64,000 nucleotides of DNA from Acutalibacteraceae bacterium (GTDB lineage Bacteria > Bacillota > Clostridia > Oscillospirales > Acutalibacteraceae): assembly GCA_045635905.1 (NCBI GenBank), contig JAZTWN010000055.1, positions 1,894 to 65,893 on the forward strand, written 5' to 3'. The position numbers were made by a program, and so were the translations under genes. Below are positions 18,205-56,612 of the stretch, one piece after another (the first letter of the stretch is position 1; the number at the start of each line of letters is the position of its first letter). A model generated the notes under the pieces. It was not told where the DNA came from, searched no databases, and saw only the letters and a list, made by a program, of their open reading frames with translations.

Positions 18205-18222
18205 TATTCTCCTGCCTTTCTT

Positions 18223-19710: not shown

Positions 19711-19731
19711 CTGATTTTTCCGTTTCTGAAT

Positions 19732-24703: not shown

Positions 24704-25516
24704 ATGGACAAATTTTATGATATCTGCAACAGAATAATTAAAATTGACTCTCCGTATTTCCCCGATGCGGCTATAACGCACGATGAATTTCTTGCCAATG
24801 TCGCAACACCCGATATATGTATTACAGTCAGAGCCGATGACTTTTTACCCGAAAAAGCCCGATTCGGTAGCACTGATAATATTTTCCGCTATCATCCGAT
24901 GGGAACAGAGGAAGGCAGCCTCACGGTATATGACAAAAGTAATCACCGTAGTAGTGAAACGTTCGTCGTGAAGAAGAATATGAAGGTTACTCTTGATGAG
25001 CGCTATTTCTGGAGCAGCATTTCATTTGCATCAATAATGCTTCAGGAAAAAATTCTGTTTTTCCACGCATCATTCATTGAGATTAACGGTGAAGGCATTA
25101 TTTTTACTGCTCCGTCAGGGACAGGGAAAAGCACTCAGGCAAGACTGTGGCAGGAGCACAAGGGCGCTAACGTCATAAACGGTGACAAGGCAGGAATTTT
25201 ACTGCAAGACAAAAGGGCGATTGCATGCGGAGTTCCCTTCTGCGGAACAAGCGGAATATGCAAAAACAGAAGTGTTCCGCTGAAAGCAATTGTTCTGCTC
25301 AGTCAAGCAAAACAGAATACCGTGTGCGAAATAAACGGTGCGGCGGCAATAGCACCGCTGATGCAGAACGTTCACCTCGACCTCGCGGCAGCAGATGATC
25401 GGCTTGCTTGCATTGACCTGCTCATTGAGCTTCTCGGAAACACGGCTGTACTGCAGCTCGGATGCACGCCCGACAAATCGGCAGTTGACACACTTGCCGG
25501 ATATCTCGGGATGTAA
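24704..25516 (+). CDS. HPr-kinase-like P-loop protein (HprK C-terminal domain homologue)
   Basis: FHASFIEINGEGIIFTAPSGTGKSTQARLWQEHKGANVINGDKAGI aligns with the HprK/P core pattern H-G-x-x-V...G-x-G-V-L-I-x-G-x-S-G-x-GKS...L-V-x-DD. 270 aa. Confidence 0.7.
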   Translation: MDKFYDICNRIIKIDSPYFPDAAITHDEFLANVATPDICITVRADDFLPEKARFGSTDNIFRYHPMGTEEGSLTVYDKSNHRSSETFVVKKNMKVTLDERYFWSSISFASIMLQEKILFFHASFIEINGEGIIFTAPSGTGKSTQARLWQEHKGANVINGDKAGILLQDKRAIACGVPFCGTSGICKNRSVPLKAIVLLSQAKQNTVCEINGAAAIAPLMQNVHLDLAAADDRLACIDLLIELLGNTAVLQLGCTPDKSAVDTLAGYLGM

Positions 25517-25532
25517 AAAGGAGGGGTGCTTA

Positions 25533-29600: not shown

Positions 29601-32600
29601 GATGCTATAAAATCTCTCAGAATGGATACCTTGTTGTGAACAACTGTACCGGAAATCCTTCAACAGACAGTTCAAGTAGACTTACAGAGGCAATGTATCT
29701 TGCGAACCCATCTGCTTATGGCTATGCAAGTTCATCAGAAATCCTTGCAGAGGCCTCATCTGATAAAAACAGAACGGACTATCATAGTTCAAGAAACTCC
29801 CAAGATAAAAGACGTGACTATGAGGTTTTAAACTACAAGTATACTGATGGCTACGGTTTTACAAGAGCAACATATTACTCTTATGGTGAGTGCTACAGAC
29901 TCTTAGCTATGCAGCAGGCTGTTGAAAAACTTACCTACAAAATTGAAAATGAAGTTAAAAACACCGGTTTGCAACACAGAATAGCTATCGTACAGTTTGG
30001 TTCAGATGGAAATGAAAGCTATAGCAATACCGGCATGTACAAAAACACAAGCACGGCAATGGTTCAGTACAGTAAAGAAAATCCAATTTCCGCGACAAAT
30101 TATCAAAATGCATTCTTTACATCAAGTCAATTTGCAACTGTAAGAAGCATCATCAATAATATTAAGACATGGGACAGAGACCATGACACTTATTCAAACT
30201 TTGGATTTGAAATGGCAAATAATATTGTAAAAAATTCTGATGCTGACTATCTTGCAGACGGCAATAGAAGTGCTTGTATCATTATGATCACAGACGGTGT
30301 TCCTGGTCTTGGCAATAATAACCCAAGCTCAGCAATAAGTACAGCAAATGCAGCAATAGATATGTCCCATCAGTCAAAAGAAAGTGGCGCATACGTTTAT
30401 AGTGTTCTTATGGGTAGTGACTCCTGTTCCGGTTTCAGCATGGATAACTATATGGACTATGTTTCCTCTGAATTCATTGACTCAACAAGCCTTTCTTCTT
30501 CAGGTGACAGAAACGTTGCTGACATCGATTATCGAATTAACGTTCCCACCGGCAGCACCTTCAATATCACAAATCTCGTTAATGATATGTTCAATTCAAT
30601 CACAAAGAACAGCACTAATGCTATGGTAAGGCTTACTGCTGATTCCGTGCTTCGTGAACACGTTACTGATGCCTTTGATATCAGCAATGCAACAATAGAG
30701 GCTTATACAGCAGATTGCGAATATGACGGCATCGGAAGACTCGGATTTGCACAAGAAACCCTTGACTCATCTATAACCGTACTTACAGATGAATTAGACG
30801 TTAATATAGTTAAATCGACCGGATTTGACTATACAGAAAAGTATATCAGCAAAAATCACCCGGGCAAAAAGCTCATCATAAGACTTACCGGTGTTGAAGC
30901 AAATGAAAACGCTGAGCTTCTTAATACATCCATCAACGAGCACGACACAACTGCCATCTATGAAAACATTTCAAATATGACAGCCAACAAACCGTTTAAG
31001 AAGTTCCCGACGGAAAGCTTTACTATTCCCGAGTATACGTACGTGCTCGACTACGGAATTAATATGTATGACTCTGATATCAACGGTACTCTCGTTTCCG
31101 TTGACAGTGAGCCGAGAAAGCAGAATTCTTATTCAACCGTACTTGATACCGACAACATCGGAATTACATTTACAAATGCTCAGCAGGATATGCTTTATTC
31201 ACTCAAGCCTCAATCTGACGGTGCTGAAGAAGATTCAAGAGGCTACTGTCTGATTCAGCGTGATAACGGAACATACGACTGGTTCAGAATCAACATTCTT
31301 CCTGCATCAAACGTTTACTTTGAAGAATTCACCGGAACAAAGCAGACAACAACAGAAAATGCAAATTATGCTAATTGGCACCAGGATGGAACCAAAGAAA
31401 GCTTCACTCAGAATCTTACCAATGAAAATGATGTATACGGCTTTGACAAGGAATATTCAAAAAGCACTTCTGCTTTTTCGTATGGTTCTGCATACAAGGC
31501 TGAGGTAAATTCTGACATTATAAGAAGTGAAACTATTTCCTTCAGCTACACAGGCACAGCAGTAGATATCGTTGCTTCCTGCGGCAGCAAAACCGGTATT
31601 TATATCGTAACAATTAAAAACAGTAATGGTGTTGAAAAAGCATACATTGTTGACACATACTTTACCGACAACGGATATCTCAGCAGCACAAATCAGCTTA
31701 ATCAGGTACCCATTGTTCACCATGAAAATTCAGGCGGCTACGACACATACACTGTTGAGGTCACATCAGTTTACCTTGCATACATTGTAGGTGGAAGAAG
31801 CTCAACATATGCACTGGACCGTTTCGGCAACGAGAATGTTTCTTTCTTCTCAACAGACATTTCCGATGAAGCAAAGGAAGCAGTTCTTTCATTTGCAGAT
31901 ATGGATTACCTTCTTGACGAAAACGTTGAGGTTATCTTCTGCGACGAAAATTCAATCTTCAACGGCGGTACAGGTGCTGAAGGCACAAATGGCGGAATGT
32001 CAACATTTGCACTTGGCTCATCAAGCACAGAAACATCAACAGGTCTTGTAAACTATTTTGACGGTTACAGAATATATAATCCTCTCGGTGATAACGAAGG
32101 CGAATATCCTCAGTCAGAACAGGGGTCTGTGTATTACAACATTATAAATTCGCTCGCAACACCAGATTCAATACTTAACGGAACCAGTGATAAGTTTGTC
32201 GGATACATTGTCGGTTCCGGCAGCACTAACGAAATAAGCTTTTCTGACTACGAAAGCAAGGGTCCTGCTAATGAGGTTTATCTCACAAAAGGCAACGCTA
32301 TTGCTTTCACCGCACCTGAAGGCTATGAAAGAGTTATGGTAAGCCTTCGAGCAGTCAACGGTGCAACAAAAGCAAAAATCGGTAGCAAGGAATTTACAGT
32401 AAGCAGCACAACTGAAATGTATTATGATATTACTCCTTACATTGAGGATAACACCGTAGCAATTCTTAATAGCGGCTCAGGCATACTTGCAGTAAATAAC
32501 ATCAAGCTTGTCAGCGGTCACGTAGTTGAACCTATGGCAGTATTCAACATGTCCAGAATCAGAATGATGATGGCTGCACCTGCAACAGAGGTTGAACCCA

Positions 32601-32815
32601 ATGTTCCCGAGGAAACAACAAACGAAAATATTTCCTGGCCCGAGGTTGATCCCGTTCCCGAAGGCACTGCTCCGGAAGATGACGGTGTTGAAGATAATGT
32701 ATCAGAAGATACAGATTCAACAGATGGCATTATCGATACACTCAAGTCAGTGCTCAATAAGATTATTGCATTCTTTAACAAGGTATTTACCTTGTTAAAA
32801 TCACTTGCTGCGTAA
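26645..32815 (+). CDS. Giant (2,056 aa) secreted protein with a vWA/MIDAS domain and a C-terminal acidic linker plus amphipathic helix
   Basis: Signal peptide MKTTKKLLAFMLSALMIFSVAIVPG...AVEADA. vWA MIDAS DFIFVLDASGSM (from 29318) with RIAIVQFGS and IIMITDGVPG strands. GGAGG RBS 9 nt upstream, and an ATGA overlap with the rSAM stop. The rest of the protein has no motif I recognise. Confidence 0.8.
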   Translation: MKTTKKLLAFMLSALMIFSVAIVPGADLSMFAVEADAAITLGGITQQRVVSNYESIYRSYQERFFMGAESNEPTNFVIPGLSSSNDYTPQGMTYWEEKEWILISAYDASGSGKHSVIYALDAVTTDFVALFKILNADGSVNTSHGGGIAASKYNFYYADTGSNISYIPLSEMDVAKGTVKEIKLRGSINCSGELGGAATSYCCYEDGVLWAGNFYYNEDDRYATSAHSAANSMIVGYELHGNSSAEEWYYLSTNYNVINLNIDSSTQQTWTNNSGVSMNFTTMNTNGANVEIRGTITNTTGNTFGEVTQNFCSFKLTEGVKYKLEFITDNYQMSDLYMFAPNGTHCDVKLAQSTTITDLGNGKYHYQMIFTAGLKPNGADSSWPTTQSTNGSYTGTYTMRFDQDSVAAGERKFNMTDISISKFAEASGFTPDSNYEGVGCAGNPTYVILFPGIDKIQYAMVFKGKIYISRSWKRTSGTNHTRELMIGDIDIYSPGAESYSINGRTRPCTVLNVNNMTRFGGDNGASNLNQMFYMGEALCVIEDYLYMFGEGAAWAYNGKESNNKCDEPIDVIWKIDQHFLLDEKRLIEDTKAIYYEKVTDISGINSEDEYIIVHKSPEKDPITQKNILYAIDAFGGYGGHKLPKQDAGSQPNTGDSMGIVGYPITNYSIDEENENIIYLSEEDASKLSIRWEIEPSNATHDKAQVKITNKDLYYSTNEYLYFGSRLFAMTTTARKNLDRIYLEEFAASEGNFVLYYLGGTTEEAKPYYLWCNDGRDQDFIAAYTEYYSNHGKTGYVPKYHGLEEVPGTFHSDAFHYQTDQNTGTLIGSVTDVEMGSISIYKRVNDEYSTTSGSRVYTDMFAELQADGTYTIDIESYAISNLQYQKVNERPTDFIFVLDASGSMTNNTDARGYHTEINNWSALKMKQAANSNDISENGNYNREWTSNFYYKLPDGEFARISVAVNKGSDGTYSRDIWLWCKHPVTGRCYKISQNGYLVVNNCTGNPSTDSSSRLTEAMYLANPSAYGYASSSEILAEASSDKNRTDYHSSRNSQDKRRDYEVLNYKYTDGYGFTRATYYSYGECYRLLAMQQAVEKLTYKIENEVKNTGLQHRIAIVQFGSDGNESYSNTGMYKNTSTAMVQYSKENPISATNYQNAFFTSSQFATVRSIINNIKTWDRDHDTYSNFGFEMANNIVKNSDADYLADGNRSACIIMITDGVPGLGNNNPSSAISTANAAIDMSHQSKESGAYVYSVLMGSDSCSGFSMDNYMDYVSSEFIDSTSLSSSGDRNVADIDYRINVPTGSTFNITNLVNDMFNSITKNSTNAMVRLTADSVLREHVTDAFDISNATIEAYTADCEYDGIGRLGFAQETLDSSITVLTDELDVNIVKSTGFDYTEKYISKNHPGKKLIIRLTGVEANENAELLNTSINEHDTTAIYENISNMTANKPFKKFPTESFTIPEYTYVLDYGINMYDSDINGTLVSVDSEPRKQNSYSTVLDTDNIGITFTNAQQDMLYSLKPQSDGAEEDSRGYCLIQRDNGTYDWFRINILPASNVYFEEFTGTKQTTTENANYANWHQDGTKESFTQNLTNENDVYGFDKEYSKSTSAFSYGSAYKAEVNSDIIRSETISFSYTGTAVDIVASCGSKTGIYIVTIKNSNGVEKAYIVDTYFTDNGYLSSTNQLNQVPIVHHENSGGYDTYTVEVTSVYLAYIVGGRSSTYALDRFGNENVSFFSTDISDEAKEAVLSFADMDYLLDENVEVIFCDENSIFNGGTGAEGTNGGMSTFALGSSSTETSTGLVNYFDGYRIYNPLGDNEGEYPQSEQGSVYYNIINSLATPDSILNGTSDKFVGYIVGSGSTNEISFSDYESKGPANEVYLTKGNAIAFTAPEGYERVMVSLRAVNGATKAKIGSKEFTVSSTTEMYYDITPYIEDNTVAILNSGSGILAVNNIKLVSGHVVEPMAVFNMSRIRMMMAAPATEVEPNVPEETTNENISWPEVDPVPEGTAPEDDGVEDNVSEDTDSTDGIIDTLKSVLNKIIAFFNKVFTLLKSLAA

Positions 32816-32827
32816 GGAGGTATAAGT

Positions 32828-33061
32828 ATGAAAACATATCAGAAGCCTACAATTATGCTGTCATCAACAGCATCTACAGCAAGTACTTTAGGAAGCTGCA
32901 TGGAAAAGGTTGATGCAGAGCTTATTCAGCAGATTACCGGCCTTCCTATCACTAACGATTCTTTTGGCATGAATGAAGCATGCAAGAAACCTGTACCGAT
33001 TGAGTTTTATTGCAAATTCACATCTGGTGAATTAGGTGCTCTTCAGGCATTCATTTCCTAA
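32828..33061 (+). CDS. 77-aa cytoplasmic Cys-containing small protein, candidate rSAM/PqqD substrate (RiPP-precursor-like)
   Basis: AAGGAGG lies exactly 7 nt before the ATG, and a terminator follows immediately. It has no signal peptide or TM helix. Cys at positions 24, 52 and 62, an S/T-rich stretch at 12-23, and a C-terminal Ser. It is the last gene of the rSAM operon. Confidence 0.6.
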   Translation: MKTYQKPTIMLSSTASTASTLGSCMEKVDAELIQQITGLPITNDSFGMNEACKKPVPIEFYCKFTSGELGALQAFIS

Positions 33062-33078
33062 AAAATCAAACAAAAAAA

Positions 33079-33113: not shown

Positions 33114-33150
33114 CAAAAAAATCGGAGGGGTTTGAGCCCTCCGTTTTTTA
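33114..33150. terminator. Bidirectional rho-independent terminator (ends the TraX operon on the minus strand)
   Basis: AAAAAAAT-CGGAGGG-GTTTGAG-CCCTCCG-TTTTTTA: a 7-bp GC-rich stem flanked by an A-tract and a T-tract. It sits 2 nt from the TraX stop codon. Confidence 0.7.
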
Positions 33151-33151
33151 T

Positions 33152-33835
33152 TCAGAAAAACAGGATTTTTATAAGATAAATCACTGCAAGATGCAAGGGA
33201 TAGAAAACGTAGAAAAGATATTTCAGCTTCAGCCTTCCTCGTTTTCCGTTATACAGAGCAATCGGCACAAGGGAAAGCAGAGAATACCACTGTATGCCGC
33301 CAAGGTCAATGGAAAGAAATACAAGCATAACAAAGGCTGCAACAAGCTTTAACGGCTTTTTCGGTGCAAAATATACTATTACAGGCAACAAAAGGCCCGA
33401 AAAACCGTAATCAATCTGAAAGCCCTTTACAAGCACCGGCATTCCCAGACATAGAAAAATTACCGCTGACGCATCAATTGCCACAAGCAGTGCGGATGAA
33501 AGATTTTTCTTTTTAATGAAATTATCTATTGCAAAAATCGTCAGAATAGAAAGAGAAAAGGTCACAAGCACATTCTGATAATATGATTTTTCCGCAATAA
33601 AATATACGAGCTGACAGCCCACTGCAAGACCTGCAATTTTCAGGAAATATTGCCGTTTTTTACGGGTATAAAAGCAGCCCTCGGCAATCATAAAAGCAAA
33701 TATGGGGAAAGCAAGTCTGCCGAAAATCTGAAGAAATTCAAGCTGCGGAAAAAGCTCCTTGCCAACGTGGTCGGCAAGCATTGAAAGCACCGCAAGAATT
33801 TTAAGCTGATTGTTTGAAAGTCTTAAATATTTCAT
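33152..33835 (-). CDS. TraX-family integral membrane protein (putative acyl/acetyltransferase)
   Basis: MKYLRLSNNQLKILAVLSMLADHVGK... is the typical TraX N-terminus (LKxxAxxxMxxDH). 227 aa with about 7 hydrophobic helices. ATGA overlap with the upstream gene. Confidence 0.75.
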   Translation of the reverse strand: MKYLRLSNNQLKILAVLSMLADHVGKELFPQLEFLQIFGRLAFPIFAFMIAEGCFYTRKKRQYFLKIAGLAVGCQLVYFIAEKSYYQNVLVTFSLSILTIFAIDNFIKKKNLSSALLVAIDASAVIFLCLGMPVLVKGFQIDYGFSGLLLPVIVYFAPKKPLKLVAAFVMLVFLSIDLGGIQWYSLLSLVPIALYNGKRGRLKLKYLFYVFYPLHLAVIYLIKILFF

Positions 33836-35193
33836 AGTGATTTTATGTTATTTTCAAATTCTGCGAAGAACTTTTCAAGAATAGCGCTGTCATTTTCGTT
33901 GCCGCGTACACATATTGACGCTGAAAGTGCGCCGCCGATTGAAAGGGCGGTCATAACTGCACAGGGCTTGTTTTTTGCCGCTCCTGCAGTAAAGGCGTCA
34001 AAGGGACCCGATTGCCCCAGCACAAAGTCTGCAGGCTCAAGTTTTCCAACGTTGCTGACAGACATCTGAGGGTTATTGTAAAAAAGCTTTACAAGGCTCT
34101 CTGCCTGAATATACGTCATCGCTTTGTATGCAAAATTCAGAAGCGGCAGCCCGTGAAGACCTAAAAACTCGTCATTCTTAAGCGCCTTCATTGCATCACG
34201 CACAAGAAGCAGAGTTTCCTTAAGGTCACTCCCCTTCTTATCAAGCACACAATACATAAACGACACGTGATTCGTATAGCCTATGGTTGACAAATCCTTG
34301 ATATGACGTCTGAGGTCAGTAGCACAGGCAACACTTAAACGGTCAGTTGTCCTCACGTCTGCAATTTTACCAAACGCATCAATATAGGAGGCAATCAGCA
34401 GGTCCGTCACCGTTGCACCTACCGATTTTGCATATAAGCAGGCTCGTGAAAAGGAATCCGCATCAACACGGCAGGAGGAAATTACTACCTTTTCCTCACC
34501 GTTTACGGGGGTAAACGGGAATTTTATCTTTGAACGGGGTGAGGCATTGGCTATCTGCATTTTAGCCTTTTTTGCAGTCTTTTTATCAAAGCCCTTATAC
34601 ACCTCGGAATATTTACGGGAGCCGACAGAGAAATTTACGGGAGAAATACCGCAAAGAAGAAAATCCGTGTAATTTTTACAGAAATCACTCCAGAACATTT
34701 TAAATCCGCCACCGTCAAAGCACATATGATTCCATATAAAAAGCACGTAGGTTCTGCCCTCGTAAAAGTAAACACCTATATTCATCTGAACGTTACTTTT
34801 CAAGGGAATTTCACGCGAGAAGAACTCTTCCTTAGCCTTTTTTATATCATCCACCTGACGGATATCGAGAAAATCCGTTATAGCATAATCGGCAACCTTC
34901 CAATAGGGTGCAACAGGGTTATTTATAACCTCAGAGCGCAGAATTGTTACGGTTTCAAGGCAACAAACAGCAACAGTCTTAAAGGCTTCGGTATCAACAA
35001 TAAAATCGTAATCCATTTCAAAGCGCGCAAGACGGTCCATATAATTTCTGCACATAAGGTTTACCTTGTCGTACATTTCAGTGGGAAGCATACGCTTTCC
35101 GGTAACGGGATGTGCATTACGATATGCCTGCAGGTCTGCAATCACCTTTTCGGAGGTTATCCCCTTACTGCGGATATATTCATTATAATCCAT
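33832..35193 (-). CDS. Stand-alone condensation-domain-like acyltransferase (HxxxDG active-site motif)
   Basis: IWNHMCFDGGGFKMFW contains HxxxDG, as in NRPS C-domains / PapA5 / WS-DGAT. The 453-aa size fits a two-lobed CAT-like fold. RBS GGTGA 6 nt upstream. Confidence 0.6.
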   Translation of the reverse strand: MDYNEYIRSKGITSEKVIADLQAYRNAHPVTGKRMLPTEMYDKVNLMCRNYMDRLARFEMDYDFIVDTEAFKTVAVCCLETVTILRSEVINNPVAPYWKVADYAITDFLDIRQVDDIKKAKEEFFSREIPLKSNVQMNIGVYFYEGRTYVLFIWNHMCFDGGGFKMFWSDFCKNYTDFLLCGISPVNFSVGSRKYSEVYKGFDKKTAKKAKMQIANASPRSKIKFPFTPVNGEEKVVISSCRVDADSFSRACLYAKSVGATVTDLLIASYIDAFGKIADVRTTDRLSVACATDLRRHIKDLSTIGYTNHVSFMYCVLDKKGSDLKETLLLVRDAMKALKNDEFLGLHGLPLLNFAYKAMTYIQAESLVKLFYNNPQMSVSNVGKLEPADFVLGQSGPFDAFTAGAAKNKPCAVMTALSIGGALSASICVRGNENDSAILEKFFAEFENNIKSL

Positions 35194-35205
35194 ACAAATT
35201 CACCG

Positions 35206-36894
35206 TTATTCTGCAATATGTGAGAAAAAGAAGTCCCTCTTCTCGTCATTATCGATAACCTTAATGGGCTTTACCTGATTAAGATTTGCACCGCGCTTTC
35301 TGAGAACCTCTCGGTAGTCGTCATAGGTTCCGTGACGCAAAAACTTAACCTCGGGATGTCCCAGCGCACCGCTCTTTATAAGAGGCTCTACGGAAACATT
35401 ACCCTTGCAGAGCATTTCTTCAAACACCTGGGCATACCTTGCTTTTTTGTCTTCGGCTACAGGCTGCGCAGTTTCAAGAAGTAAAACGTAGTGTCCGGGA
35501 GAGGTGGAGCGATCGGGATAAATACTGTATCCGATATACAAATCGTCCATTTCATTGGAAAGATTTTCTACCATTTCATCAAATGCCATCTGACTTATCT
35601 TTTCGCCACTTATATTTGCAATCTGATTAAGGCGGTAACAGAAGGTAATTTTAGGCACCTGATGATAATATCCCGTGCATTTTACAACATCTTCAATTCT
35701 GTAGCGGTAGAAGCCGCTCATATTGGTAAGAATAAGCTCATATTCCTTACCGGGCTCAAGATCCTTGATTGTAAGAAGGTTATCGTAGCCCTCCTGCTCA
35801 ACGGGTCGGAATTCATAGAAGCCGTTCTGAGGAAGCATAACGTATTCAAAGGAGTTAAGCTCCATAGGAACTGCCATAAAAGCCTCGGTTGCGGTATAGC
35901 CAAGATAATGAATGGGCATATCCTCACCTATATATCTGCGAAGCTTTTTTGCATAAAGTGAAAGAGCGCCCGTTCCCATACCGTAAAGCCATTCAACCCT
36001 GGGAAGAATTCTCGGAACGATGGGAGATTCGTCAAAGCCCTTTCTGAACTCATTACGAAGCTCCTCAGCTCTCTTGGGCATAGGCTTTAATTTTCTTTCC
36101 AATTTCTTTCTTATATGCGCGGGAACGTTTACGCTTTCGTTGATAATCCCCTTTTCGATATCATCGCAGAGCATTTCCCAGTTTTCCTCCATATAGAAAA
36201 ACATTGATTCGAGCGTTGTGATGAATATTGTACCGAGATAGCTTGTTTTCGTGTTGATAAGCGCAAATCTCAGTTTAAGATAATGCATATCCATATCAGA
36301 GCCGTCGGGGAAAAGCACCTCCTTCGGGGAGGTAGCAAAAATAGGAACAAGGGGACGGATATTAAGAAGCGGAATTGAAGAAAGACAGCTTATTGTGCCG
36401 CCCTTCATCTTACGCCACGATGTTTCTGCAGTAAGAAGTCCCTTCTGAGGAGGAAGTGGTCTTCCCTTTCTTATAAACCATTTTACGGCGCAGCCTATGG
36501 GTGCGGAAAAGCCAAAGCACTGTGCAACCCACTCTGCCCAGAATGAAAGAGGAACAAGCTTTGATTTACCGGTGCTTCCCGAGCTTTCTGTAAAGCGTCT
36601 GACTGGAAGATTTGTGATAAGCCCTCTTTCCCCCTCTGCCATTCGCCATACATATTCGTCATAGTCGGCATAGGTGGAAAGGGGAACTATTTTCTGATAG
36701 TCCTCTATTGATTTTACCTTGTTGAAATTATGAATCCGTCCGTACTCGGTGGACTTATTCCAGCGCATAAGTCTTTTTACGGTTTTCTCCTGTAATTTAA
36801 GACCTCTGCGAGAATATATATTGAGCTTTATGTGCTCACAGGTACCGACTAAGCCGCCGTATGAGGAAAGTATGTATCCTAATATATTAAGCAT
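35206..36894 (-). CDS. GH3 (auxin-responsive promoter) family adenylate-forming acyl-acid amido synthetase homologue
   Basis: FTESSGSTGKSKLVPL (GH3 P-loop-like SSGT(T/S)xGxxKxxP), GFYRYRIEDVVKCTGYYHQVPKITFCYR (GH3 YRxGDxV...P.. motif), and C-terminal NQVKPIKV (QxKxPR-like). 562 aa. Confidence 0.8.
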   Translation of the reverse strand: MLNILGYILSSYGGLVGTCEHIKLNIYSRRGLKLQEKTVKRLMRWNKSTEYGRIHNFNKVKSIEDYQKIVPLSTYADYDEYVWRMAEGERGLITNLPVRRFTESSGSTGKSKLVPLSFWAEWVAQCFGFSAPIGCAVKWFIRKGRPLPPQKGLLTAETSWRKMKGGTISCLSSIPLLNIRPLVPIFATSPKEVLFPDGSDMDMHYLKLRFALINTKTSYLGTIFITTLESMFFYMEENWEMLCDDIEKGIINESVNVPAHIRKKLERKLKPMPKRAEELRNEFRKGFDESPIVPRILPRVEWLYGMGTGALSLYAKKLRRYIGEDMPIHYLGYTATEAFMAVPMELNSFEYVMLPQNGFYEFRPVEQEGYDNLLTIKDLEPGKEYELILTNMSGFYRYRIEDVVKCTGYYHQVPKITFCYRLNQIANISGEKISQMAFDEMVENLSNEMDDLYIGYSIYPDRSTSPGHYVLLLETAQPVAEDKKARYAQVFEEMLCKGNVSVEPLIKSGALGHPEVKFLRHGTYDDYREVLRKRGANLNQVKPIKVIDNDEKRDFFFSHIAE

Positions 36895-36917
36895 TAATTT
36901 TCACCCTATATTTTTTA

Positions 36918-38072
36918 TCAGAAATTTTCAATAAAGCGTGTGGGACGGTAAGGAAATGCGCGGAAGAAATCCCTGGAACTTTCTTTTATTTCCGCACCGT
37001 ATATGAACGCTGCAGTTTCCATTGTGTGGCCCTCACCTGCAAGCATAAGCCTTGCTGCGGCAGTTTCGGAAAGAGCAAGGTCATATTCACCCTCTGCTCT
37101 TCTCGTAACAGTAGCTCTGCCGTTTTCATATTCAACGTCAAATATACCGCTGTTCTGCGGAAGACGGTCACGACTCATAAGACTGAAGCGGCCGTATTCC
37201 TCAGGGTATTCATTGATTTCAAGAAGCTTCTGCAGATTATATATTCTGCCCGCACAGCCGCTGTTATAATCATAAAAGGTTCCTGGGATTCTGTCTGCAA
37301 GTAAGGAGAACGGTGAGCCCGGATACTGATTGCGGACAACAAGATTTTTTACAATACCGTCGTAATTACGCAAGAAGCCGATCAGCGCATACAATGCTGA
37401 AGGAGTAAGGCAGTAAAGGTCATTTACAAAAAGTGTTTCGGGACGGGTAACGGTAAAACGGACATAACCGTCAGCAACACCGTTTTCATCGCGGTGAAAA
37501 TACGTATAATCGGCATTTTCAAGAGGCTTACCGCAGAAAAACTTCTTATCATTGTGAAGCGTCATAAGATTTTCCTTAAGAGCACACTTGCCGTGAAGCT
37601 CACTTATTTCTTCAAAATACTCATCAGAATAAGGAATAACCTCCGTACATCTGGGAATATGATTCATATTCTCAAATGGCACTCTTATTGCAAAAAGGCG
37701 GTTAAGATTTGCATAGCCGAATTTTTCGTAATATGAAATTGAAAACGGGAAAAGAAGACCTATTGTCCAGTCCTTTTCAAGAGCAAGCTCTTCAATTTTT
37801 TCAAAAATGGCTCTTACGCCGCCAAGACGCCTTGCCTCGGGAAGACTGCAAACACCGCTTGCAACCACTGCGTTGATAAACGTACCGCAATAGTTTGTGC
37901 TGAAGGGTAATACCTCGGAGCCTGCAATCATTCTGTCACCGTCAAAGGCACACATAACAGGCATATCAACGTGGTCATCCACGGCTGCATCAAATTTCCA
38001 TATAAATGAGGCTGATGATATTTTAAGGTAATCAATTTCTTCCTGTTGAGTTGAAACATATCTTACGTCCAT
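36918..38072 (-). CDS. Eis-like GNAT N-acetyltransferase with C-terminal SCP2-type domain
   Basis: GNAT motif A (LPEARRLGGVRAIFEKIEELA), followed by FPFSISYYEKFGYAN (Eis-like). The ~384-aa three-domain length fits. RBS GGAGG 5 nt upstream. Confidence 0.65.
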   Translation of the reverse strand: MDVRYVSTQQEEIDYLKISSASFIWKFDAAVDDHVDMPVMCAFDGDRMIAGSEVLPFSTNYCGTFINAVVASGVCSLPEARRLGGVRAIFEKIEELALEKDWTIGLLFPFSISYYEKFGYANLNRLFAIRVPFENMNHIPRCTEVIPYSDEYFEEISELHGKCALKENLMTLHNDKKFFCGKPLENADYTYFHRDENGVADGYVRFTVTRPETLFVNDLYCLTPSALYALIGFLRNYDGIVKNLVVRNQYPGSPFSLLADRIPGTFYDYNSGCAGRIYNLQKLLEINEYPEEYGRFSLMSRDRLPQNSGIFDVEYENGRATVTRRAEGEYDLALSETAAARLMLAGEGHTMETAAFIYGAEIKESSRDFFRAFPYRPTRFIENF

Positions 38073-38083
38073 AAAGACCTCCG

Positions 38084-41000
38084 TTATTTTGCTTTTCTGC
38101 TTTCAATAAGCTTCTTTACGCGCTTATCATTTTTAATTCCGTCTATAACCTTGTTGTTGATGATGTAATAAAGGTCACCCAAGGAATTTTTGTTATAGCA
38201 GCCCTCCATAACAAAATGGACACAGAAATCTCTGTCGAAGAGCTTATCAAGCACTCTTTCAATTGCATTTCTGCGGGAATGCTTTACAGCATAATCTGAG
38301 AAGGTATAGTCAAATTCTCTCTTTTCAAGGGTATCAAAATGCTCGTCACCCTTAATAAAGTAAGTATCGTTTTTAATTGCCGTAGCGGCAAAAACAACAA
38401 TATCCTTGTTTACGGGAAGCTTCACAGCGGCTACTCCCCTTACAGGTATTGCGATACTGTAAAGATAAAGCTGCTTCGCAATCATATCCCCGTCAGGAGA
38501 ATGTGTATGAGTTACGGTGAGCGCCTGAGGACAGGGTTTTATATAGCCTGTAATTTTTTCGCGCATAAGGTCCCACGTGCCGGGAGCCTCATCGTGACTC
38601 TGCACAGAAGCGATAAATTTATTTTCATCACACAAAAATTCTGCCTTAACATCACCGCCAAGGGACGTAAGGAGAAGATGCAGGGTATCTGCGCCATCGG
38701 GTACGCTGATATTCTGTCCGTCACAAGCAATACAGTTCTTTTCTTCCTTTGAAAGGCTATAATCAATTCCTGCAAAATTGAATTTTTCGGGAAGCATTTC
38801 GCAGGGTGCGGAAATTCCGTTTTTAAGTGTTGAATCCTTTCGGCTTTCATTTCTTGTTATACCGCAGTCTGTAAACCTGAGAGCAACACTCTCCTGCAGA
38901 ATACCGTCAGCGGATGAATTTTTTTCGAATACCAGCATAAAGCTGTTAATGGAATTAGCATCAGCATCAAACACAAGTCTGCCGTCAGTAACTTCAATTT
39001 CCTTAATAAGCTTTTCGTCACCTGTAACAGCATAAGCCTTGCTTACGGGCACTGAAAATTCAACGGAAACGTTTTCCTGTCTTTTCCCCGATGCTTCAAC
39101 GAGTCTTATTACGGTATTATCGTTTTCCTGCGCCTTTTTAAGTGCTGAAATTCTTACCCTTTCATTACTTACTTTTACAAATGAGAAGCCGTCGGCAACA
39201 CCACCGCTATGCTTATCGGCAACAAAGCTGTGCATAGGCTGGCAGAAGCGTTCTGCATAAGCCGAAGCCATTGCAGGCTCACCGCTATGACCGAAAACTG
39301 CATAGGAATAACGGTTAAGTCCCATATCCATTACATGCTGCGAGCATTCGTGACGGTAATTTGCAAAGGGAGTATGAACGCAGGTAAGGCGAAGAGTGGA
39401 ATTGTCGGGCTTATCCCAGCCTGTACGGGAATCACTGAAAACAGAAACACCGAAGCTTCCGTCCTTATCTGTGATATCTGCCCATTTCTGTGCAGGCACC
39501 TCGTAAAGCCTTTCTGTATTATTACCGCGCTTTGTGTAGCCGAGTCCTATATCATAATTTGCATTTTCGTTCTCTGAAGAAAGCCTGAATTCTGTTTTGA
39601 GAAGAGATGCCTCCTCTCTCCAATCTGTTTCGTTATATACGGTAACGAATTCACTTTCGGCATCAAGTGAAATTACGCTTGTAAACGTAGATTTATTTGC
39701 CTTTCTTATAATTTCAACAGAGCATAAGGCAGGTCCGTTATCTTTAATTTTAATTTCGGGAGCAGAAGGATACATATAGGGGGCTTCCTTTATATCCTCA
39801 TACTTTACCTCCCATGCGGGCCAGTCAAAGCTGTGAACGTTATTAAGAATTGCGTTTTTTATAGGAGCTGAAAGAAGCTCCTTATCAAGCTTTTTATTGT
39901 AAACGGAGGAAATATCTCCGTTTTCGTCAATAGTAACCTTGATGAATTTATTTTCAAGAGAGCCGGTGCTTACTGAAATTTCAGATGTTATTTTTTCTGT
40001 TCTTTCACAGGGCACAACGTCATATACGGCAAGACCGCAGGAGGGCACTTCCGCAATAAAGGTTACCCTTCTTTTTCCATTTTCGGATTTTGTCTGTGCT
40101 GCAACTGCATTTCCCTTTCTGTCATAAACAGCAAAGTCAGCAGCATCGGAATCAAGAAGCACACTTACGGCTTCCCTTCTTGATGAAGCACTCTCCACAG
40201 GGTTTGATACTACAACAGGTATCCCCTTTACAAAGGAGGTATCAAGCATCCTTGAAAGTGCCTTACATGATGCAGTGTATTCAGCTGAAAACGTATTCAT
40301 TGACTGAACGTAGTCACTATAGCTTCTTTTGTAGCACTCTTCAAATGAGGTGCCTGTAATATCATCGTGGAAATGATGAGTAATTACCCTTTTCCACGCA
40401 GCATCAAAGCCGTACTGAGGATAATCACGAAGACCGTAAACAGCTGCAGCAGAGGTAAATCTTTCAGCCGCATCCGCAAGAAGCTCGTTTCGTCTGTTCC
40501 AACGCTTTGTGGGTGTTCTTGAGGTATAGCTTCCTGTGCCGTGGCGAGTCATAAGAAATTCTGATTCCCATACGGGAAGAGCATTTTTCTGCTCTTCGGA
40601 CATAGCACAGATATCGTCGAAAAATTCCTTTGTTGTAGCAGATAAAACCTCGGTATCACTGCTTTCATTCTGTCTTGCAGAATCTACAACAACCTTAATA
40701 GAGCTTTCCTTAGGCGCACCGCCTCTGTCACCGTTTCCGTGATAAACAAAGGTTTTATCGAGCCCGTATTTCTTTTTATTGCTGTCAAGCTTATCTGTAA
40801 TTCTCTCGTTATTTCTTACATCCTTCATTATTGTGGTGTAGGAAAAGGGATTGATCGCACTCCATACACCCTTACCGTCAGGTCCTTTCCAGAAGCCGAT
40901 ATCAAAGGGAATGTCTACTGCCGCACCCCAGGGCAACTTACAGGTTGAAAAGCCCGTAAGTCCCGAATGAGCCGCAACGGAGGGCAGAGCACGTCCGAAA

Positions 41001-41392
41001 CCGAAGCAGTCGGGAATAAATATATCGTTTGATTCCTTTCCGAATTCAGCACGGAAAAAGCCGTTACCGTAAAGAATATTTCTTGTAAGTGCTTCGGGGG
41101 AAGGAATATTCACGTCACCGTTTTCAAAGCAGGAGCCGCAGGGATTCCATCTGCCGTCTGCAATATATTTCTTTAATCTTTCATACAAATCGGGGTAGTA
41201 TTCCTTGAGAAGCTCATAGCGGAGGCTTCCCTCGAAATTGAATTTATACTCGGGATATTTATCAAGTAAATCAAGATTTTTCACAAAAGTATCGGGAATG
41301 TATTCTTTAACAGACCTTTCATAGGTCCAAAGCCACGAGGTATCAAGATGAGCTGTTGCAATTGTGTAAATTCTGTCGCGTTGCTTCTTCAT
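38084..41392 (-). CDS. Glycoside hydrolase family 38 alpha-mannosidase (cytoplasmic; no signal peptide)
   Basis: N-terminus IYTIATAHLDTSWLWTYERS (GH38 HxDxxW), then FIPDCFGF and HHFHDDITGTS motifs. 1,102 aa, the typical length. Confidence 0.9.
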   Translation of the reverse strand: MKKQRDRIYTIATAHLDTSWLWTYERSVKEYIPDTFVKNLDLLDKYPEYKFNFEGSLRYELLKEYYPDLYERLKKYIADGRWNPCGSCFENGDVNIPSPEALTRNILYGNGFFRAEFGKESNDIFIPDCFGFGRALPSVAAHSGLTGFSTCKLPWGAAVDIPFDIGFWKGPDGKGVWSAINPFSYTTIMKDVRNNERITDKLDSNKKKYGLDKTFVYHGNGDRGGAPKESSIKVVVDSARQNESSDTEVLSATTKEFFDDICAMSEEQKNALPVWESEFLMTRHGTGSYTSRTPTKRWNRRNELLADAAERFTSAAAVYGLRDYPQYGFDAAWKRVITHHFHDDITGTSFEECYKRSYSDYVQSMNTFSAEYTASCKALSRMLDTSFVKGIPVVVSNPVESASSRREAVSVLLDSDAADFAVYDRKGNAVAAQTKSENGKRRVTFIAEVPSCGLAVYDVVPCERTEKITSEISVSTGSLENKFIKVTIDENGDISSVYNKKLDKELLSAPIKNAILNNVHSFDWPAWEVKYEDIKEAPYMYPSAPEIKIKDNGPALCSVEIIRKANKSTFTSVISLDAESEFVTVYNETDWREEASLLKTEFRLSSENENANYDIGLGYTKRGNNTERLYEVPAQKWADITDKDGSFGVSVFSDSRTGWDKPDNSTLRLTCVHTPFANYRHECSQHVMDMGLNRYSYAVFGHSGEPAMASAYAERFCQPMHSFVADKHSGGVADGFSFVKVSNERVRISALKKAQENDNTVIRLVEASGKRQENVSVEFSVPVSKAYAVTGDEKLIKEIEVTDGRLVFDADANSINSFMLVFEKNSSADGILQESVALRFTDCGITRNESRKDSTLKNGISAPCEMLPEKFNFAGIDYSLSKEEKNCIACDGQNISVPDGADTLHLLLTSLGGDVKAEFLCDENKFIASVQSHDEAPGTWDLMREKITGYIKPCPQALTVTHTHSPDGDMIAKQLYLYSIAIPVRGVAAVKLPVNKDIVVFAATAIKNDTYFIKGDEHFDTLEKREFDYTFSDYAVKHSRRNAIERVLDKLFDRDFCVHFVMEGCYNKNSLGDLYYIINNKVIDGIKNDKRVKKLIESRKAK

Positions 41393-41427
41393 AATGGATT
41401 TCTCCCCCGTTAATTATAGATGGTACA

Positions 41428-41436
41428 ATTATATCA
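41428..41436 (-). promoter_or_regulatory. Candidate extended -10 promoter element (TGATATAAT) for the GH38-to-TraX operon
   Basis: The minus strand reads TGATATAAT about 35 nt upstream of the GH38 ATG. The -35 is weak (CTTTAT). It lies just downstream of the terminator at 41496-41538. Confidence 0.4.
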
Positions 41437-41495
41437 AATTATTTATTATAAATAAAGCACTTTATTATAAATTTTCTTATATTTCAACATATTAT

Positions 41496-41538
41496 AAAAA
41501 AATTTACCACCGCCTGACAGCACGTCATGCGGTGGTAA
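41496..41538 (-). terminator. Rho-independent terminator after the dockerin phosphoesterase gene
   Basis: The minus strand shows TTACCACCGC-(15-nt loop)-GCGGTGGTAA, a 10-bp stem, followed by ATTTTTTT. Confidence 0.7.
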
Positions 41539-41544
41539 TGATAT

Positions 41545-44500
41545 TTATTTAAGCTTTTCAAGTCCGACAGAGGCACGAAGAATAAGTCTTGCATCAGCTG
41601 CACTTATTGCGCCGTCCTTATCGGCATCAGCAGCCTGCTTCTGAGCATCATTGAGCTTTTCAAGTCCGACAGACGCTCTGAGAGCAAGTCTTGCATCGGA
41701 TGCACTGACAGTGCCGTCATCATCGACGTCACCGACAGTAGCAACAGGCTTGGGAACAGGATTGATTACAAAGGTTAAGGTCTTCTCGCCGGCGTATTTG
41801 CCAATGAAGCTTACCTTAACGTTATACTCCCCTGCTTCAATACACTTACCGCTGTAGGTAAGCTTATAATCGGTACCTTCAACAAGCACCTTTCCCTGTG
41901 AATCCGTCACCTTTACTAAAGGCTGCTGCACACTACCGTTATAAGTAAAGTTATCCTCAGAGAGGGCAATTGTTTTGGGTCTGTAAATTACAGTGGATTC
42001 ACCCTTTGAGCACTCGACACATACGGATGAAACTGAACCGTCTGCAGTAAGCGTTGCGGGCTGAATTACCTCCTTGTACTCGTGAGTATGGTCATAAAGA
42101 CCTATGGTGAACTGACTGAGCACTGAGCCGTAGCAATCCTTTTCTACGGAATAGTAGCGGACTGTAAGAGTTTTGCCGTCATTGGAGAAATAGAACATTG
42201 CAACCATACCTGTTGAACCGATGTTTTTATCAACGTACTGTGCGTCAATAAGCATCTGGGTTACAACGTTTCCGTGTCTGCCCTTGTCCTGACGGTAAAC
42301 AACGTGCTGCCAGGGGTCGTGACCAGATAATACCATAAGAACGTTTTCGTGCTTTGAAATACACTTATCCCACATATCGTTACCGTTCTGAGCATTATCG
42401 TAGCCCTGATAGTATGTGGGAGGATAGCAATCCTCTTCAGAGATTGTTGTTCCGTCACGGTACATATATGCGTGAGTTACAACTATAACCTTATGCTCGG
42501 GATGTGCGGTAATAATCTTGTCTGCCCACTTAAGAGTTTCTTCATTGGGAGCAAAATCAAGTGTAATAATAAGGTAATCAGTACCCTGAACACTGAAGGT
42601 TCTGTATGAGTTTGTAAGGTCGCCCTTTACATCGCCGCCCTCGGGAATATCCTCCTCTCGGGTCATATAGATTATGCTTCCGTCCTCCTGCTCAACAGGA
42701 ATAAGTCCGGGCTGATCGGGGTCAGTAAGTGAAACAGTGCCCTCATTCATCATACCCTCTACGTTTTTTTCATAGAAGCCGTTGTGGAGATTTCTGTTGA
42801 AATCATCCCAGTCATCGTGATTTCCTCGTGCAAGAGAATAAGGAATAATGCCGTTAAGCTTGCTAATGCTGTTTATTGCAGTTACCCATTCACCGTCAGT
42901 ACTGTCGTCGGTTATGTCACCAAGACCGATAACGTATTCTATCTTCTGTGAGGTCTTATTTTCAACAAGCCAGTCATATATTGCCTCCATAGCCTCGGGA
43001 TCTTTTTCACACATGGTCTGTGTATCACCGATAACGGCAAAGGAATAATCGAAGTCACCTACAGGTGCAACATCTTCCTTATCCTGCCATAAAAGAATAT
43101 GCTCAAGGTCATTATTATTAGCGGAAAGGTCTTCTACAAAATGCTCGGGGCATTTTGTAAAGTCGTATGCAGCAAGAAGCTTATCATCCTTCACATCAAT
43201 GCCGTTTTTGTAGTCAGCTGCAATTTCAGCCGCACTACGCATGTCAGACCATACTGCAACAGAATAGATTTCACCTGTGAAATATGTTGCGTTACCGTTT
43301 CTGTGATCACCGCCGATAACTGCATTATGCTTTTCCTCAAAGGTAACGGGTACCTTTACGTTCTTTTTGGTCTGCATAAGCTCACCGTTAACGTAACAAT
43401 GAATTTCCTTCTTATTGAAATCCATTGTAAATGCAAGATGTACCTTTTCACCTGTTGCAACGTTTACGTTTGAGAAGGTATATACGCTTGTTCCCGAATA
43501 TGCCGCAACGTCTCTTATAGCAAGTCGGGGCTGACCGCTTTTATTGAGAGAAAATACTATACAGGGATCATACATACCGTCGCTTCCGAGGATTGTTGTT
43601 GTACCAGTAAGAGTATCTGCGTCAACCGAGAATTCTGCCTCAAAGGTAAGAGGCATTGAGCTGTACTTCTTTGTAAGCACGTACTGCTCATCTGTATTAC
43701 AGGTAAGTGAGCCCTCGTTGTAGCATTCAATACATTCTACAACTGTTACCTTTACGGTATCCTTTGTCTTACCGTCAGAAACGGTAATTGTAGCAGTACC
43801 TGTATTCTTACCTGTAATTTTTCCGTTAACAACACCTGCAACCGAACTGTTGCTTGTGGACCAGGTAAGAGCTGCAGAGCCGTAGTTTGCAGGCTCAACC
43901 TCATAGGTCTGCCCTACCTCAAGGGTAAGAGTCTGGGGATTTACCTCAAAGGACTTTCCGACACCGCCGTAAGAAAATCTGCTTGCAAATATTTCATAGA
44001 AGCCGGGGGTATCCTCGTTATCAATTTCGTTGATAACAAGCATTGAGTTTGTTCTGTACCAGAATGCAGCCATACCGTAGTTACAGGATGTAAGAATAGA
44101 TACATTATGACGAACTCCATTTTCGGAATAGCTCATTATCATATCCTTTGCATGAATACCGCTGTTGGACTTTGTTATGTTTCTGTAGCCTATTTCAGAA
44201 CCAAGCTTCAGCTGCTCAATACCCTCAGTATCAAATGAAGACAGATGTATTGAAAACTTATTGTTTGCATTGGGTCTGTTGCAGAAAACATCGTTAACCT
44301 TTGCCATAAGCGTCTGCTTGATATTACAGTTGCCGGCAGAATATGAATTCCACGTAAATTCAACATAATCGTCAGATGCCTGAAGCTTATCAATATATTT
44401 ACAGGTGGGATTAAAATCGGGCTCCCATACATCAGTTGCACCACCGAAGGGAGTGAAATAAAGCTCAAACACAGGATCTGTTTCCGAGCCGGGATAAATA

Positions 44501-45636: not shown

Positions 45637-45655
45637 TTCTTCCACCTCTTATGCA

Positions 45656-56434: not shown

Positions 56435-56612
56435 ACAGTTATCTCCTTTTTGTAAGTTCTGTATTTTCCCGGACAAGCAAAGAAAAGCTGTTATCAGAAT
56501 TTTTCTCTTACTTTCAAGGGGTAGGATGATATAAAATCACTATTTTATATTAACATATACGCGTAATAAATACAATAACAATTTTTCTCCGGCAAAATAT
56601 ACCTTGTACGGC

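Follow-up and report, generated by a model that had tools for sequence, protein, structure and literature searches.

A GH3-family amido synthetase and a condensation-like protein encoded as a conserved gene pair in gut Clostridia

Plant GH3 enzymes activate a free acid as its adenylate and, within a single active site, join it to an amino acid, with no use of coenzyme A (CoA) or acyl carrier protein (ACP). Free-standing enzymes of the condensation (C) fold, such as PapA5, SgcC5, and OaaC, take acyl groups from thioesters and pass them to free amines or alcohols (PMC13310621). Here we describe a locus in which genes for proteins of both kinds lie side by side, found in a 64,000-nucleotide (nt) stretch of DNA (the window) from Acutalibacteraceae bacterium (GenBank assembly GCA_045635905.1, contig JAZTWN010000055.1). 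The genes encode a GH3-family acyl acid amido synthetase of 562 amino acids (aa; window positions 35206..36894, minus strand) and a free-standing condensation-like (C-like) acyltransferase of 453 aa with an HxxxDG motif (33832..35193, minus strand), and are treated below as core genes 1 and 2 of a longer gene run. Bacterial GH3 enzymes number in the thousands, and only OlsH, characterised in 2025, has a known function: it makes N-acyl ornithine from a free fatty acid and ATP without ACP or CoA, and in Singulisphaera acidiphila a separate O-acyltransferase encoded in the same operon, OlsI, completes the ornithine lipid (PMC12493201). The statement of an earlier note on this DNA that bacterial GH3 homologues are essentially uncharacterised is therefore outdated. 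In gut Clostridia, the free-standing C domain OaaC belongs to a fatty acid amide (FAA) pathway that uses freely diffusing small-molecule amines; the FAA C domains carry a (D/H)HxxxDS active-site motif, and the pathway needs an ANL fatty-acyl ligase and a dedicated ACP (PMC13310621).

The proposed pair resembles OlsH and OlsI in that a GH3 ligase is accompanied, in one operon, by a separately encoded second acyltransferase. It differs in that its partner has a condensation fold, whereas OlsI is an alpha/beta-hydrolase, a fold that is absent from the window operon, and in its host, a Gram-positive relative of gut Clostridium rather than a planctomycete. With the OaaC pathway it has in common a free-standing condensation-fold enzyme and an adenylating enzyme in gut Clostridia. 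However, the activating enzyme of the window is a GH3 protein, no ACP gene is adjacent, and the motif is NHxxxDG instead of (D/H)HxxxDS. Nor did a 2026 copy of the PDB contain a solved chain with detectable sequence similarity to the C-like protein. The plant enzymes JAR1, GH3.5, and GH3.12/PBS3 have the three-domain architecture and the nucleotide motifs of the window GH3, and PBS3 followed by EPS1, a BAHD protein of the HxxxD fold, is a precedent for the two folds in sequence. Unlike the plant proteins, the window pair is bacterial and operon-encoded, and its C-like member is nearer to the C and epimerization (E) domains of nonribosomal peptide synthetases (NRPS) than to BAHD proteins and strictly keeps the catalytic His. 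No description of a GH3-plus-condensation pair was found in the literature searched for GH3 with condensation or with Clostridia.

Conservation of the pair

The alignment of the HxxxDG protein was used to scan one genome per GTDB species. This gave 93 loci, of which 80 (L010-L089) were kept, and their content was determined by tblastn with the five proteins of the window gene run. The 80 genomes are metagenome-assembled genomes (MAGs) labelled Acutalibacteraceae, Oscillospiraceae, Ruminococcus, Eubacteriales, or Clostridia; the isolate names that give a source indicate ruminants (deer, goat, yak, and cattle), and the hosts, where named, are ruminants or other herbivores. A GH3 gene is directly upstream of the C-like gene in all 77 testable loci, the other three ending within 500 nt upstream at a contig end. 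Identity to the window proteins is 72-95% for GH3 and 53-84% for the C-like protein across these loci. The gap between the two genes is 2 nt in 30 of the 75 pairs measured, and in the rest it is mostly 9-16 nt or the genes overlap. The pairing persists despite complete turnover of the surrounding genes. The pairwise distance matrices of the two proteins, computed for 69 loci, are correlated (r = 0.57; none of 999 permutations was as high), with the C-like protein evolving about twice as fast as GH3.

The pairing extends to more distant relatives. Among C-like clades at about 30-40% identity, found in a search of representatives clustered at 50%, five of six have GH3 directly upstream (L090, L092/L093, L094, L095, and L096), and their GH3 proteins are 63-71% identical to that of the window; these contexts are a sample rather than a survey. 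A reciprocal test, in which the GH3 alignment was run against metagenome contigs, gave a C-like gene directly downstream in all eight testable GH3 relatives of at least 64% identity, and beside none of about 65 relatives at or below 61%. Among the partnerless relatives are a clade abundant in the human gut (51% identity) and another at 42-45%, and the three such loci that were inspected (L108, L111, and L113) have other neighbours, for example a DUF819 protein and a pyridoxal phosphate (PLP) decarboxylase. On these comparisons, the GH3 and C-like genes are a co-inherited two-gene module that marks a GH3 sub-clade at about 63-64% identity or more. The pairing is well supported by the sequences, while the chemistry is unproven.

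Two observations belong beside these partnerless loci. In L108 an open reading frame (ORF) of 427 aa after GH3 was considered as a divergent C-like gene and ruled out: it encodes the DUF819 membrane protein, and the PLP decarboxylase gene comes next. The human-gut clade is represented by about 45 near-identical contigs within L112-L160, with no C-like gene in the locus; in L113, the one of these that was inspected, the GH3 gene (5962-7683) stands alone, near genes for an AMP-binding ligase, a radical SAM/SPASM enzyme, and a sulfatase.

The window itself has five genes in one run, in the order GH38 mannosidase, Eis-type double GNAT acetyltransferase, GH3, C-like protein, and TraX. This arrangement was found in none of the 80 genome loci or of eleven loci on encoding contigs (L001-L009, L177, and L178). 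In the closest relatives (L177, L178, and L010; 83-84% C-like identity) the order is fucosidase-GH3-C-TraX, with GNAT-MFS_2-GH38 on the opposite strand, and the downstream context of the window (a small peptide, a giant protein, a radical SAM enzyme, and ScmC) is kept. In these relatives 6 nt separate the fucosidase gene from GH3 downstream of it. The window counterpart of this gene lies at 56662-58137, separated from GH3 by about 21 kb that hold two giant dockerin genes and the GH38-GNAT genes, so the window lineage carries an insertion or rearrangement of about 21 kb. GH38 and GNAT, and likewise TraX, are accessory or adventitious to the GH3-C module.

These results bear on the earlier note, which had read the five genes as one acylation cassette. 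Its central proposal, that a GH3 enzyme adenylates and an HxxxDG acyltransferase works with it along a route that finders of biosynthetic gene clusters (BGCs) would miss, is strongly backed by the conserved pairing. When neighbourhoods are surveyed, synteny holds for GH3 and the C-like gene (77/77) but not for GH38 and GNAT (10/80) or TraX (5/80). The five genes are therefore not a conserved unit, GH38 and GNAT being a separate pair that stands on the opposite strand in the closest relatives. Nor does a mannoside-derived acceptor, which the note had suggested, find comparative support, since GH38 lies outside the conserved unit.

The two core proteins

The window GH3 matches the Pfam N, M, and C domains of the family (PF03321/PF23571/PF23572) with 226.9, 85.5, and 62.3 bits against a cut-off of 23.6 (E = 4e-67, 3e-24, and 9e-17). 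In a PDB search it aligns with plant JAR1 over residues 28-117 and 187-543 (173 bits, E = 7e-50). Its P-loop SSGSTGKSK (36559-36585, minus strand) and the motifs YTATE and YRYRIED align with SSGTSQGRPK, YGSSE, and YRYRLGD of JAR1, the Gly of the third nucleotide-binding motif being replaced by Glu. It is not an orthologue of OlsH, scoring 64.4 bits against the 620-bit cut-off of NCBIfam NF052613. With all three domains and the nucleotide-binding motifs retained, the protein probably acts as an ATP-dependent acid-amine ligase. Since GH3 clades without a C-like partner exist, it is probably also catalytically self-sufficient, and the C-like enzyme would then add a further step.

A second GH3 paralogue, about 40% identical, occurs 6-8 kb from the pair in L007 (region 16987-20696), L015, L016, L024, L027, L028, and L029. 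It is flanked by genes for an MFS_1 transporter and a small GNAT like arsinothricin/phosphinothricin N-acetyltransferases (154 bits against a cut-off of 210), and appears to be a distinct GH3 module, possibly tied to an amino-acid-analogue metabolite.

The C-like protein has no Pfam match at E <= 0.01, including Condensation (PF00668), and a search against the PDB gave nothing at E <= 10. The profile of its alignment (A1) gave only marginal PDB matches, to C/E domains around the motif (E = 0.065). The fold assignment therefore rests on an AlphaFold2 (AF2) model and Foldseek. The model, built from 15 homologues, has a pLDDT of 82.8 and a pTM of 0.85 and shows a full two-lobed condensation-domain fold. 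With it, Foldseek returned 257 PDB matches at E <= 0.001, headed by NRPS C/E domains at E of about 5e-18 (range about 1e-17 to 1e-18). The best TM-score, 0.74, is to AzeD, a free-standing C-like protein, and SgcC5, PapA5, CmnI, and the BAHD protein HCT also match. The motif HMCFDG (34711..34728, minus strand), within WNHMCFDGGG, lies in the loop between beta-strand 146-153 and helix 160-180, the position expected of a C-domain active site in the model. Its H, D, and G are invariant in alignment A1; in a wider alignment (A2) H and D are invariant, and the flanking N and G are at least 90% conserved.

The family comprises 518 representatives (50% clustering) at E <= 0.001 and 232 at E <= 1e-10. 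PF00668 matches the relatives weakly, apart from two distant members with scores of 42.6 and 39.2 bits (cut-off 30.6); some members exceed the Condensation or PapA_C thresholds, and matches to WS_DGAT_C are weak. No fusion to a carrier or GH3 domain was seen among the longer representatives P0180, P0162, and P0236. By modelled fold and motif, the protein is a remote subfamily of the condensation superfamily. Like PapA5, SgcC5, VibH, the WS/DGAT enzymes, and AzeD, it is a single-domain, two-lobed protein of about 450 aa with HxxxDG, and TM-scores among the structural matches are 0.57-0.74. Sequence identity to such free-standing acyltransferases is, however, 11-16%. They also differ in setting: the known enzymes adjoin polyketide synthases (PKS), NRPS, or carriers, or use CoA esters in lipid storage, whereas the window family is defined by its GH3 partner.

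Organisation of the locus and its neighbours

All five window genes are on the minus strand. The gaps between them are 11, 23, 12, and -4 nt, the last being an ATGA start/stop overlap of the C-like and TraX genes. These spacings and the downstream bidirectional terminator are confirmed as the earlier note gave them, and its five family assignments are right, on Pfam evidence in four cases and on the AF2 model, Foldseek, and motif for the HxxxDG protein. Shine-Dalgarno-like sequences precede GH38, GNAT, GH3, and the C-like gene; none precedes TraX, which fits translational coupling through the overlap. A hairpin followed by a T-run (ccaccgc...gcggtgg; 41494..41535, minus strand) terminates the upstream dockerin gene (41545-45645) and sets the operon apart. 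The extended -10-like element TGATATAAT (41428..41436, minus strand) is present 36 nt 5' of the GH38 ATG, as had been claimed. However, it is not the sole promoter-like match in the AT-rich spacer, the consensus scan giving also 41520-41491 and 41487-41459. At the other end, a GC-rich hairpin of 7 bp with T-runs on both strands (33123..33143) is a bidirectional terminator that serves the operon and a convergent small ORF (32829-33062). On the minus strand, terminator-like hits over the whole region number 16 against 8.3 +/- 3.4 in shuffled sequences; the 16 include the genuine flanking ones, and those inside the operon are weak. Tight gaps, flanking hairpins, and weak internal hits suggest that the five genes are probably co-transcribed in this genome, as the note had assumed. 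Its description of the run as carrier-free stands in part. No dedicated ACP, peptidyl carrier protein (PCP), ketosynthase (KS), or ANL A-domain gene occurs among the annotated window ORFs of at least 150 aa, a set that leaves aside small ORFs and a few ORFs at 58-64 kb, so that the window could still encode a carrier protein of about 80 aa; housekeeping acyl-ACP or acyl-CoA could also donate. GH38, GNAT, GH3, and the C-like protein have no predicted signal peptide or transmembrane segment.

TraX (33152..33835, minus strand) is a polytopic membrane protein of 227 aa with about 6-7 hydrophobic segments. It matches Pfam TraX (PF05857) at positions 2-216 of 217 (116.3 bits against a cut-off of 25; E = 2.5e-33) and fails the equivalogs for F-type pilin acetylases (44.7 against 149 bits for TIGR02755; 29.4 against 419 bits for NF010260). 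The full-length PF05857 match and polytopic topology are common to it and to the TraX/TrbP pilin acetylases of conjugative plasmids. Unlike these, it is coupled to the C-like gene, and no type IV secretion or conjugation gene occurs among the annotated window ORFs. Among the 80 genome loci, five have TraX directly 3' of the C-like gene, as do L177/L178, and the spacing is -4 nt in four loci. In two of the 80 it is about 1 kb off, behind an EamA gene on the opposite strand. TraX thus appears to be an optional accessory gene, translationally coupled to the C-like gene where present. TraX has been assigned, as a borderline case, to the transmembrane acyltransferase (TmAT) superfamily (PMC12423673).

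The first two genes of the run encode a class II alpha-mannosidase of 1102 aa (GH38; 38084..41392, minus strand) and an Eis-type double-GNAT acetyltransferase of 384 aa (36918..38072, minus strand). The mannosidase passes the Pfam cut-offs for the GH38 N, middle, C, and C2 domains (166.7, 49.6, 110.5, and 31.7 bits). Its best PDB matches are Ams1-type mannosidases, and it fails the MngB equivalog (96 against 1138 bits). The acetyltransferase passes for Acetyltransf_9 (46 bits) and Acetyltransf_17 (38 bits) and reaches 20.1 bits for SCP2_2, whose cut-off is 23.2; it is far under the NCBIfam Eis equivalog cut-offs (16-33 against 463-701 bits). Its PDB matches 2hv2, 3n7z, 2ozg, and 2i00, labelled there only as GNAT or hypothetical proteins, are presumably Eis homologues. 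As in mycobacterial Eis and the Eis-like GNATs of Firmicutes and cyanobacteria, there is a double GNAT, followed by what may be a C-terminal SCP2-like region; unlike Eis, the window protein is paired with a GH38 mannosidase, and in relatives an MFS_2 symporter stands between the two.

GH38 and GNAT occur within 10 kb of the GH3-C pair in the same 10 of the 80 genome loci, adjacent to each other or with one MFS_2 gene between. They are directly upstream of GH3-C on the same strand in two, L018 and L029, which have GH38-GNAT-GH3-C in the window order (L018 being the same as L008/L009). The window GH38 and GNAT are closest to the L018/L029 proteins (65-70% and 77-78%) and only 59% identical to the copies of the nearest relatives, which points to a mosaic origin of the window arrangement. 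The partnership of GNAT with GH38 and MFS_2 suggests a role in sugar or glycoside metabolism. The order GH38-[MFS_2]-GNAT in relatives resembles that of lacZYA, which has a hydrolase, a permease, and an acetyltransferase. GH38 and GNAT are probably an independent glycoside-utilisation pair outside the conserved core.

The neighbours of the pair fall into two types of context on clustering. In about 55 loci the order is [DHDPS]-[aldehyde dehydrogenase]-GH3-C, facing a convergent M20 peptidase-DnaE-GcpE set, and in about 20, including the window, the pair stands amid glycan-utilisation genes. The aldehyde dehydrogenase is of class 3 (fatty or aryl). Of the 24 loci with this gene, 23 have it on the same strand as GH3 and 19-46 nt ahead of it, and in the last the distance is 233 nt. 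The enzyme scores best against the benzaldehyde dehydrogenase MdlD (410 bits, not reaching the cut-off of 550) and class-3 aldehyde dehydrogenases, and its second-best PDB match is the human fatty aldehyde dehydrogenase FALDH (4qgk). A gene like triacylglycerol lipases follows the pair in L095, and transporters of the major facilitator superfamily (MFS) flank it in L090 and L096, preceding it in the latter. The aldehyde dehydrogenase, lipase, and MFS neighbours point to a free hydrophobic acid as a candidate substrate of GH3. A carrier gene is not adjacent in most related loci, and a nearby PP-binding gene occurs only in L094, on the other strand.

Other genes near the pair vary. The M20 peptidase gene (54 of the 80 loci) was considered as an ILR1-like amidohydrolase and set aside; it converges on the pair and shares a strand with the neighbouring DnaE and GcpE genes, and an inherited neighbourhood is the simplest explanation. 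In L095 (2748-8784) Mob_Pre and serine recombinase genes stand around the pair, the lipase-like gene, and a two-component system, an indication that the module can travel on a mobile element. A flavoenzyme of the BaiCD/enoate-reductase type follows the pair in L003 and L004. A variant of the nickel-pincer-nucleotide (NPN)-dependent ornithine cyclodeaminase (618 bits against an NCBIfam cut-off of 440), perhaps a further hint at the substrate, is encoded just 3' of the C-like gene or TraX in L003 (13523-14731) and likewise in L004, L019, L024, L027, L049, and L053, all of the glycan context; in L003 and L004 it comes after the flavoenzyme. An AMP-binding ligase and a Condensation-domain protein are encoded beside the pair, on the opposite strand, in L090 (1-2249). 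In L094 (9423-12755) a PP-binding protein and a PlsC-type acyltransferase are encoded on the opposite strand and an AMP-binding ligase on the strand of the pair. These carrier-dependent genes of L090 and L094 could be a coincidence or a clue to the source of the acyl donor.

The wider window contains three further groups of genes. On the plus strand, 24704-33062 holds a set resembling those for ribosomally synthesized and post-translationally modified peptides (RiPPs): an ORF of 270 aa (Pfam ScmC in the corresponding protein of relatives), a radical SAM enzyme (25395-26648), a very large protein of 2056 aa with only a weak VWA match (26645-32815), and a Cys-containing ORF of 77 aa (32829-33062). 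With a PqqD gene in addition, this set adjoins GH3-C(-TraX) in L005, L177, and L178. The minus strand of 41545-56476 encodes two giant dockerin proteins, one of 1366 aa with Big_2, Laminin_G_3, metallophosphoesterase, and dockerin domains, the other of 3606 aa with an N-terminal dockerin, PMP repeats, and a beta-helix. A large capsule or exopolysaccharide locus occupies 114-24028 on the minus strand, with genes for a CpsB phosphatase, two tyrosine-kinase-like ATPases, an ABC exporter, a Polysacc_synt_2 dehydratase, a DegT aminotransferase, an initiating sugar transferase, nine glycosyltransferases, a UDP-glucose dehydrogenase, and epimerases.

Possible functions of the pair

The reading we favour, with a probability of roughly 55%, is that the window run is a lineage-specific composite of three parts: the GH3-C core, an optional TraX, and an independent GH38-GNAT pair. 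GH3 would adenylate a free, probably hydrophobic (fatty or aryl) acid with ATP and, in the same active site, ligate it to an amine or amino acid to give an N-acyl amide, as plant GH3s and OlsH do. The C-like enzyme would carry out a second O- or N-acyl transfer on this product, or would prepare the substrate of GH3; the order of the reactions could be reversed. Its donor would be acyl-CoA or a housekeeping acyl-ACP, which would make a dedicated carrier unnecessary. A diacylated aminolipid or a molecule of the lipo-amino-acid type would result, and the C-like enzyme would have the role that OlsI or OlsA has after OlsH or OlsB. TraX may acylate the product further, pass an acyl group across the membrane, or serve in export, and the GH38-GNAT pair would merely have come to sit upstream of GH3 in the window lineage. 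A more specific proposal, possible though somewhat doubtful, is that GH3-C is an unrecognised route, without a carrier protein of its own, to a diacylated aminolipid or lipo-amino-acid signal, conserved in at least 93 species-level genomes of the reference set and extended by TraX in some lineages. If true, this would bring the aminolipid pathways to four, with the first one from Bacillota, or else reveal a new class of N-acyl amides from gut microbes, and current BGC detection rules would be expected to miss it.

Several points weigh against the composite reading and its chemistry. The C-domain enzymes characterised so far normally take their acyl groups from a carrier or from CoA, and neither kind of donor is encoded next to the pair. 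Aminolipids are unreported in these Clostridia, and an ornithine-lipid review mentions none in Bacillota. The distant C-like clade L091 has no GH3 neighbour. The loci come nearly all from one bacterial family, as MAGs or metagenome contigs, so the synteny partly reflects shared ancestry. Moreover, two paralogous types of GH38-GNAT recur beside the pair in about half of the roughly 20 glycan-context loci, so a looser functional or regulatory link is possible.

That recurrence, in 10 of the 80 loci overall, is also what speaks for the pathway of the earlier note, in which all five enzymes act together and an acceptor derived from a mannoside by GH38 is acylated by GH3, the C-like enzyme, GNAT, and TraX in turn to a surface or secreted glycoconjugate. 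Co-transcription is likely here from the tight packing and single flanking terminator, and the order GH38-GNAT-GH3-C is seen again in L018 and L029. However, GH38 and GNAT are absent within 10 kb in 67 of the 77 testable GH3-C loci, in the closest relatives the two genes flank a sugar symporter gene on the other strand, neither GH38, an Eis-type GNAT, nor TraX adjoins the pair in the five distant GH3-paired clades, and the five-gene order is found only in the window, so that we regard a single five-enzyme pathway as quite improbable. A role of GH3-C and TraX in altering a polymer of the cell envelope (teichoic acid, capsule, or peptidoglycan) instead of making a small molecule, like the Dlt and O-acetylation systems, is weakly suggested by TraX: members of the superfamily in which it is borderline carry acyl groups to extracytosolic acceptors. 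Envelope genes do occur nearby: a TagF-like glycerophosphotransferase gene convergent with the pair in about ten loci, MBOAT and AlgX genes in L096, an Acyl_transf_3 gene in L090, and the capsule locus 9 kb away in the window. These genes are, however, on other strands and inconsistently present, TraX is absent from more than 90% of loci, and predictions place GH3 and the C-like protein in the cytoplasm as soluble proteins, all of which makes an envelope role very unlikely.

The remaining alternatives concern the reaction itself. GH3 might conjugate aromatic acids (phenylacetic, indole-3-acetic, hydroxycinnamic, or benzoic), of plant or fermentation origin, to amino acids, with the C-like enzyme transferring or eliminating a group, for detoxification or hormone-type conjugation in a plant-fibre-degrading gut bacterium. 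The higher score of GH3 against JAR1 (173 bits) than against the OlsH model (64 bits) leans this way, the two types of score not being directly comparable, as do the MdlD-like scores of the upstream aldehyde dehydrogenase, the BaiCD-type flavoenzyme, the herbivore hosts and the dockerin proteins of the organism, the structural match to HCT, and the published GH3 and BAHD partnership of PBS3 and EPS1. On the other hand, class-3 aldehyde dehydrogenases also take fatty aldehydes, human FALDH being the second-best PDB match, the lipase neighbour in L095 points to fatty acids, strict conservation of the catalytic His in the C-like protein fits acyl transfer, and aromatic-acid pathway genes are not consistently linked to the pair. 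We consider this use unlikely, though not remote. A different division of labour, to which we give the least credence, would make GH3 the adenylating half only, with the C-like enzyme capturing the acyl-adenylate or a GH3-bound intermediate in a carrier-free adenylation-plus-condensation system. That the two genes are strictly adjacent, often overlap or lie 2 nt apart, and co-evolve suggests a physical complex; no carrier gene is beside the pair in most loci, and the invariant basic residues in the stretches GSR.Y, DLRR, and AAKNKP of alignment A1 might serve to bind a nucleotide phosphate. This would be new enzymology, but we know of no condensation-superfamily enzyme that takes an acyl-AMP donor, and sister GH3 clades have no C-like partner. 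Every characterised GH3 also performs both half-reactions alone (PMC12493201; plant GH3 structures).

The composite of a GH3-C core, an optional TraX, and an independent GH38-GNAT pair carries a caution, namely, that operon packing in a single genome over-stated the size of the functional unit. What the comparison gives in its place is a sharply bounded GH3 sub-clade tied to a condensation-fold enzyme, a concrete two-gene target in a family of which one bacterial member is understood. Should the pair prove to make an N-acyl amide or an aminolipid, it would add a route without a carrier protein of its own to the NAS/OlsB-type acyltransferases, the ACP-dependent OaaC pathway, and OlsH/OlsI, and this route would be located in abundant, mostly uncultured, fibre-degrading Clostridia of the gut.

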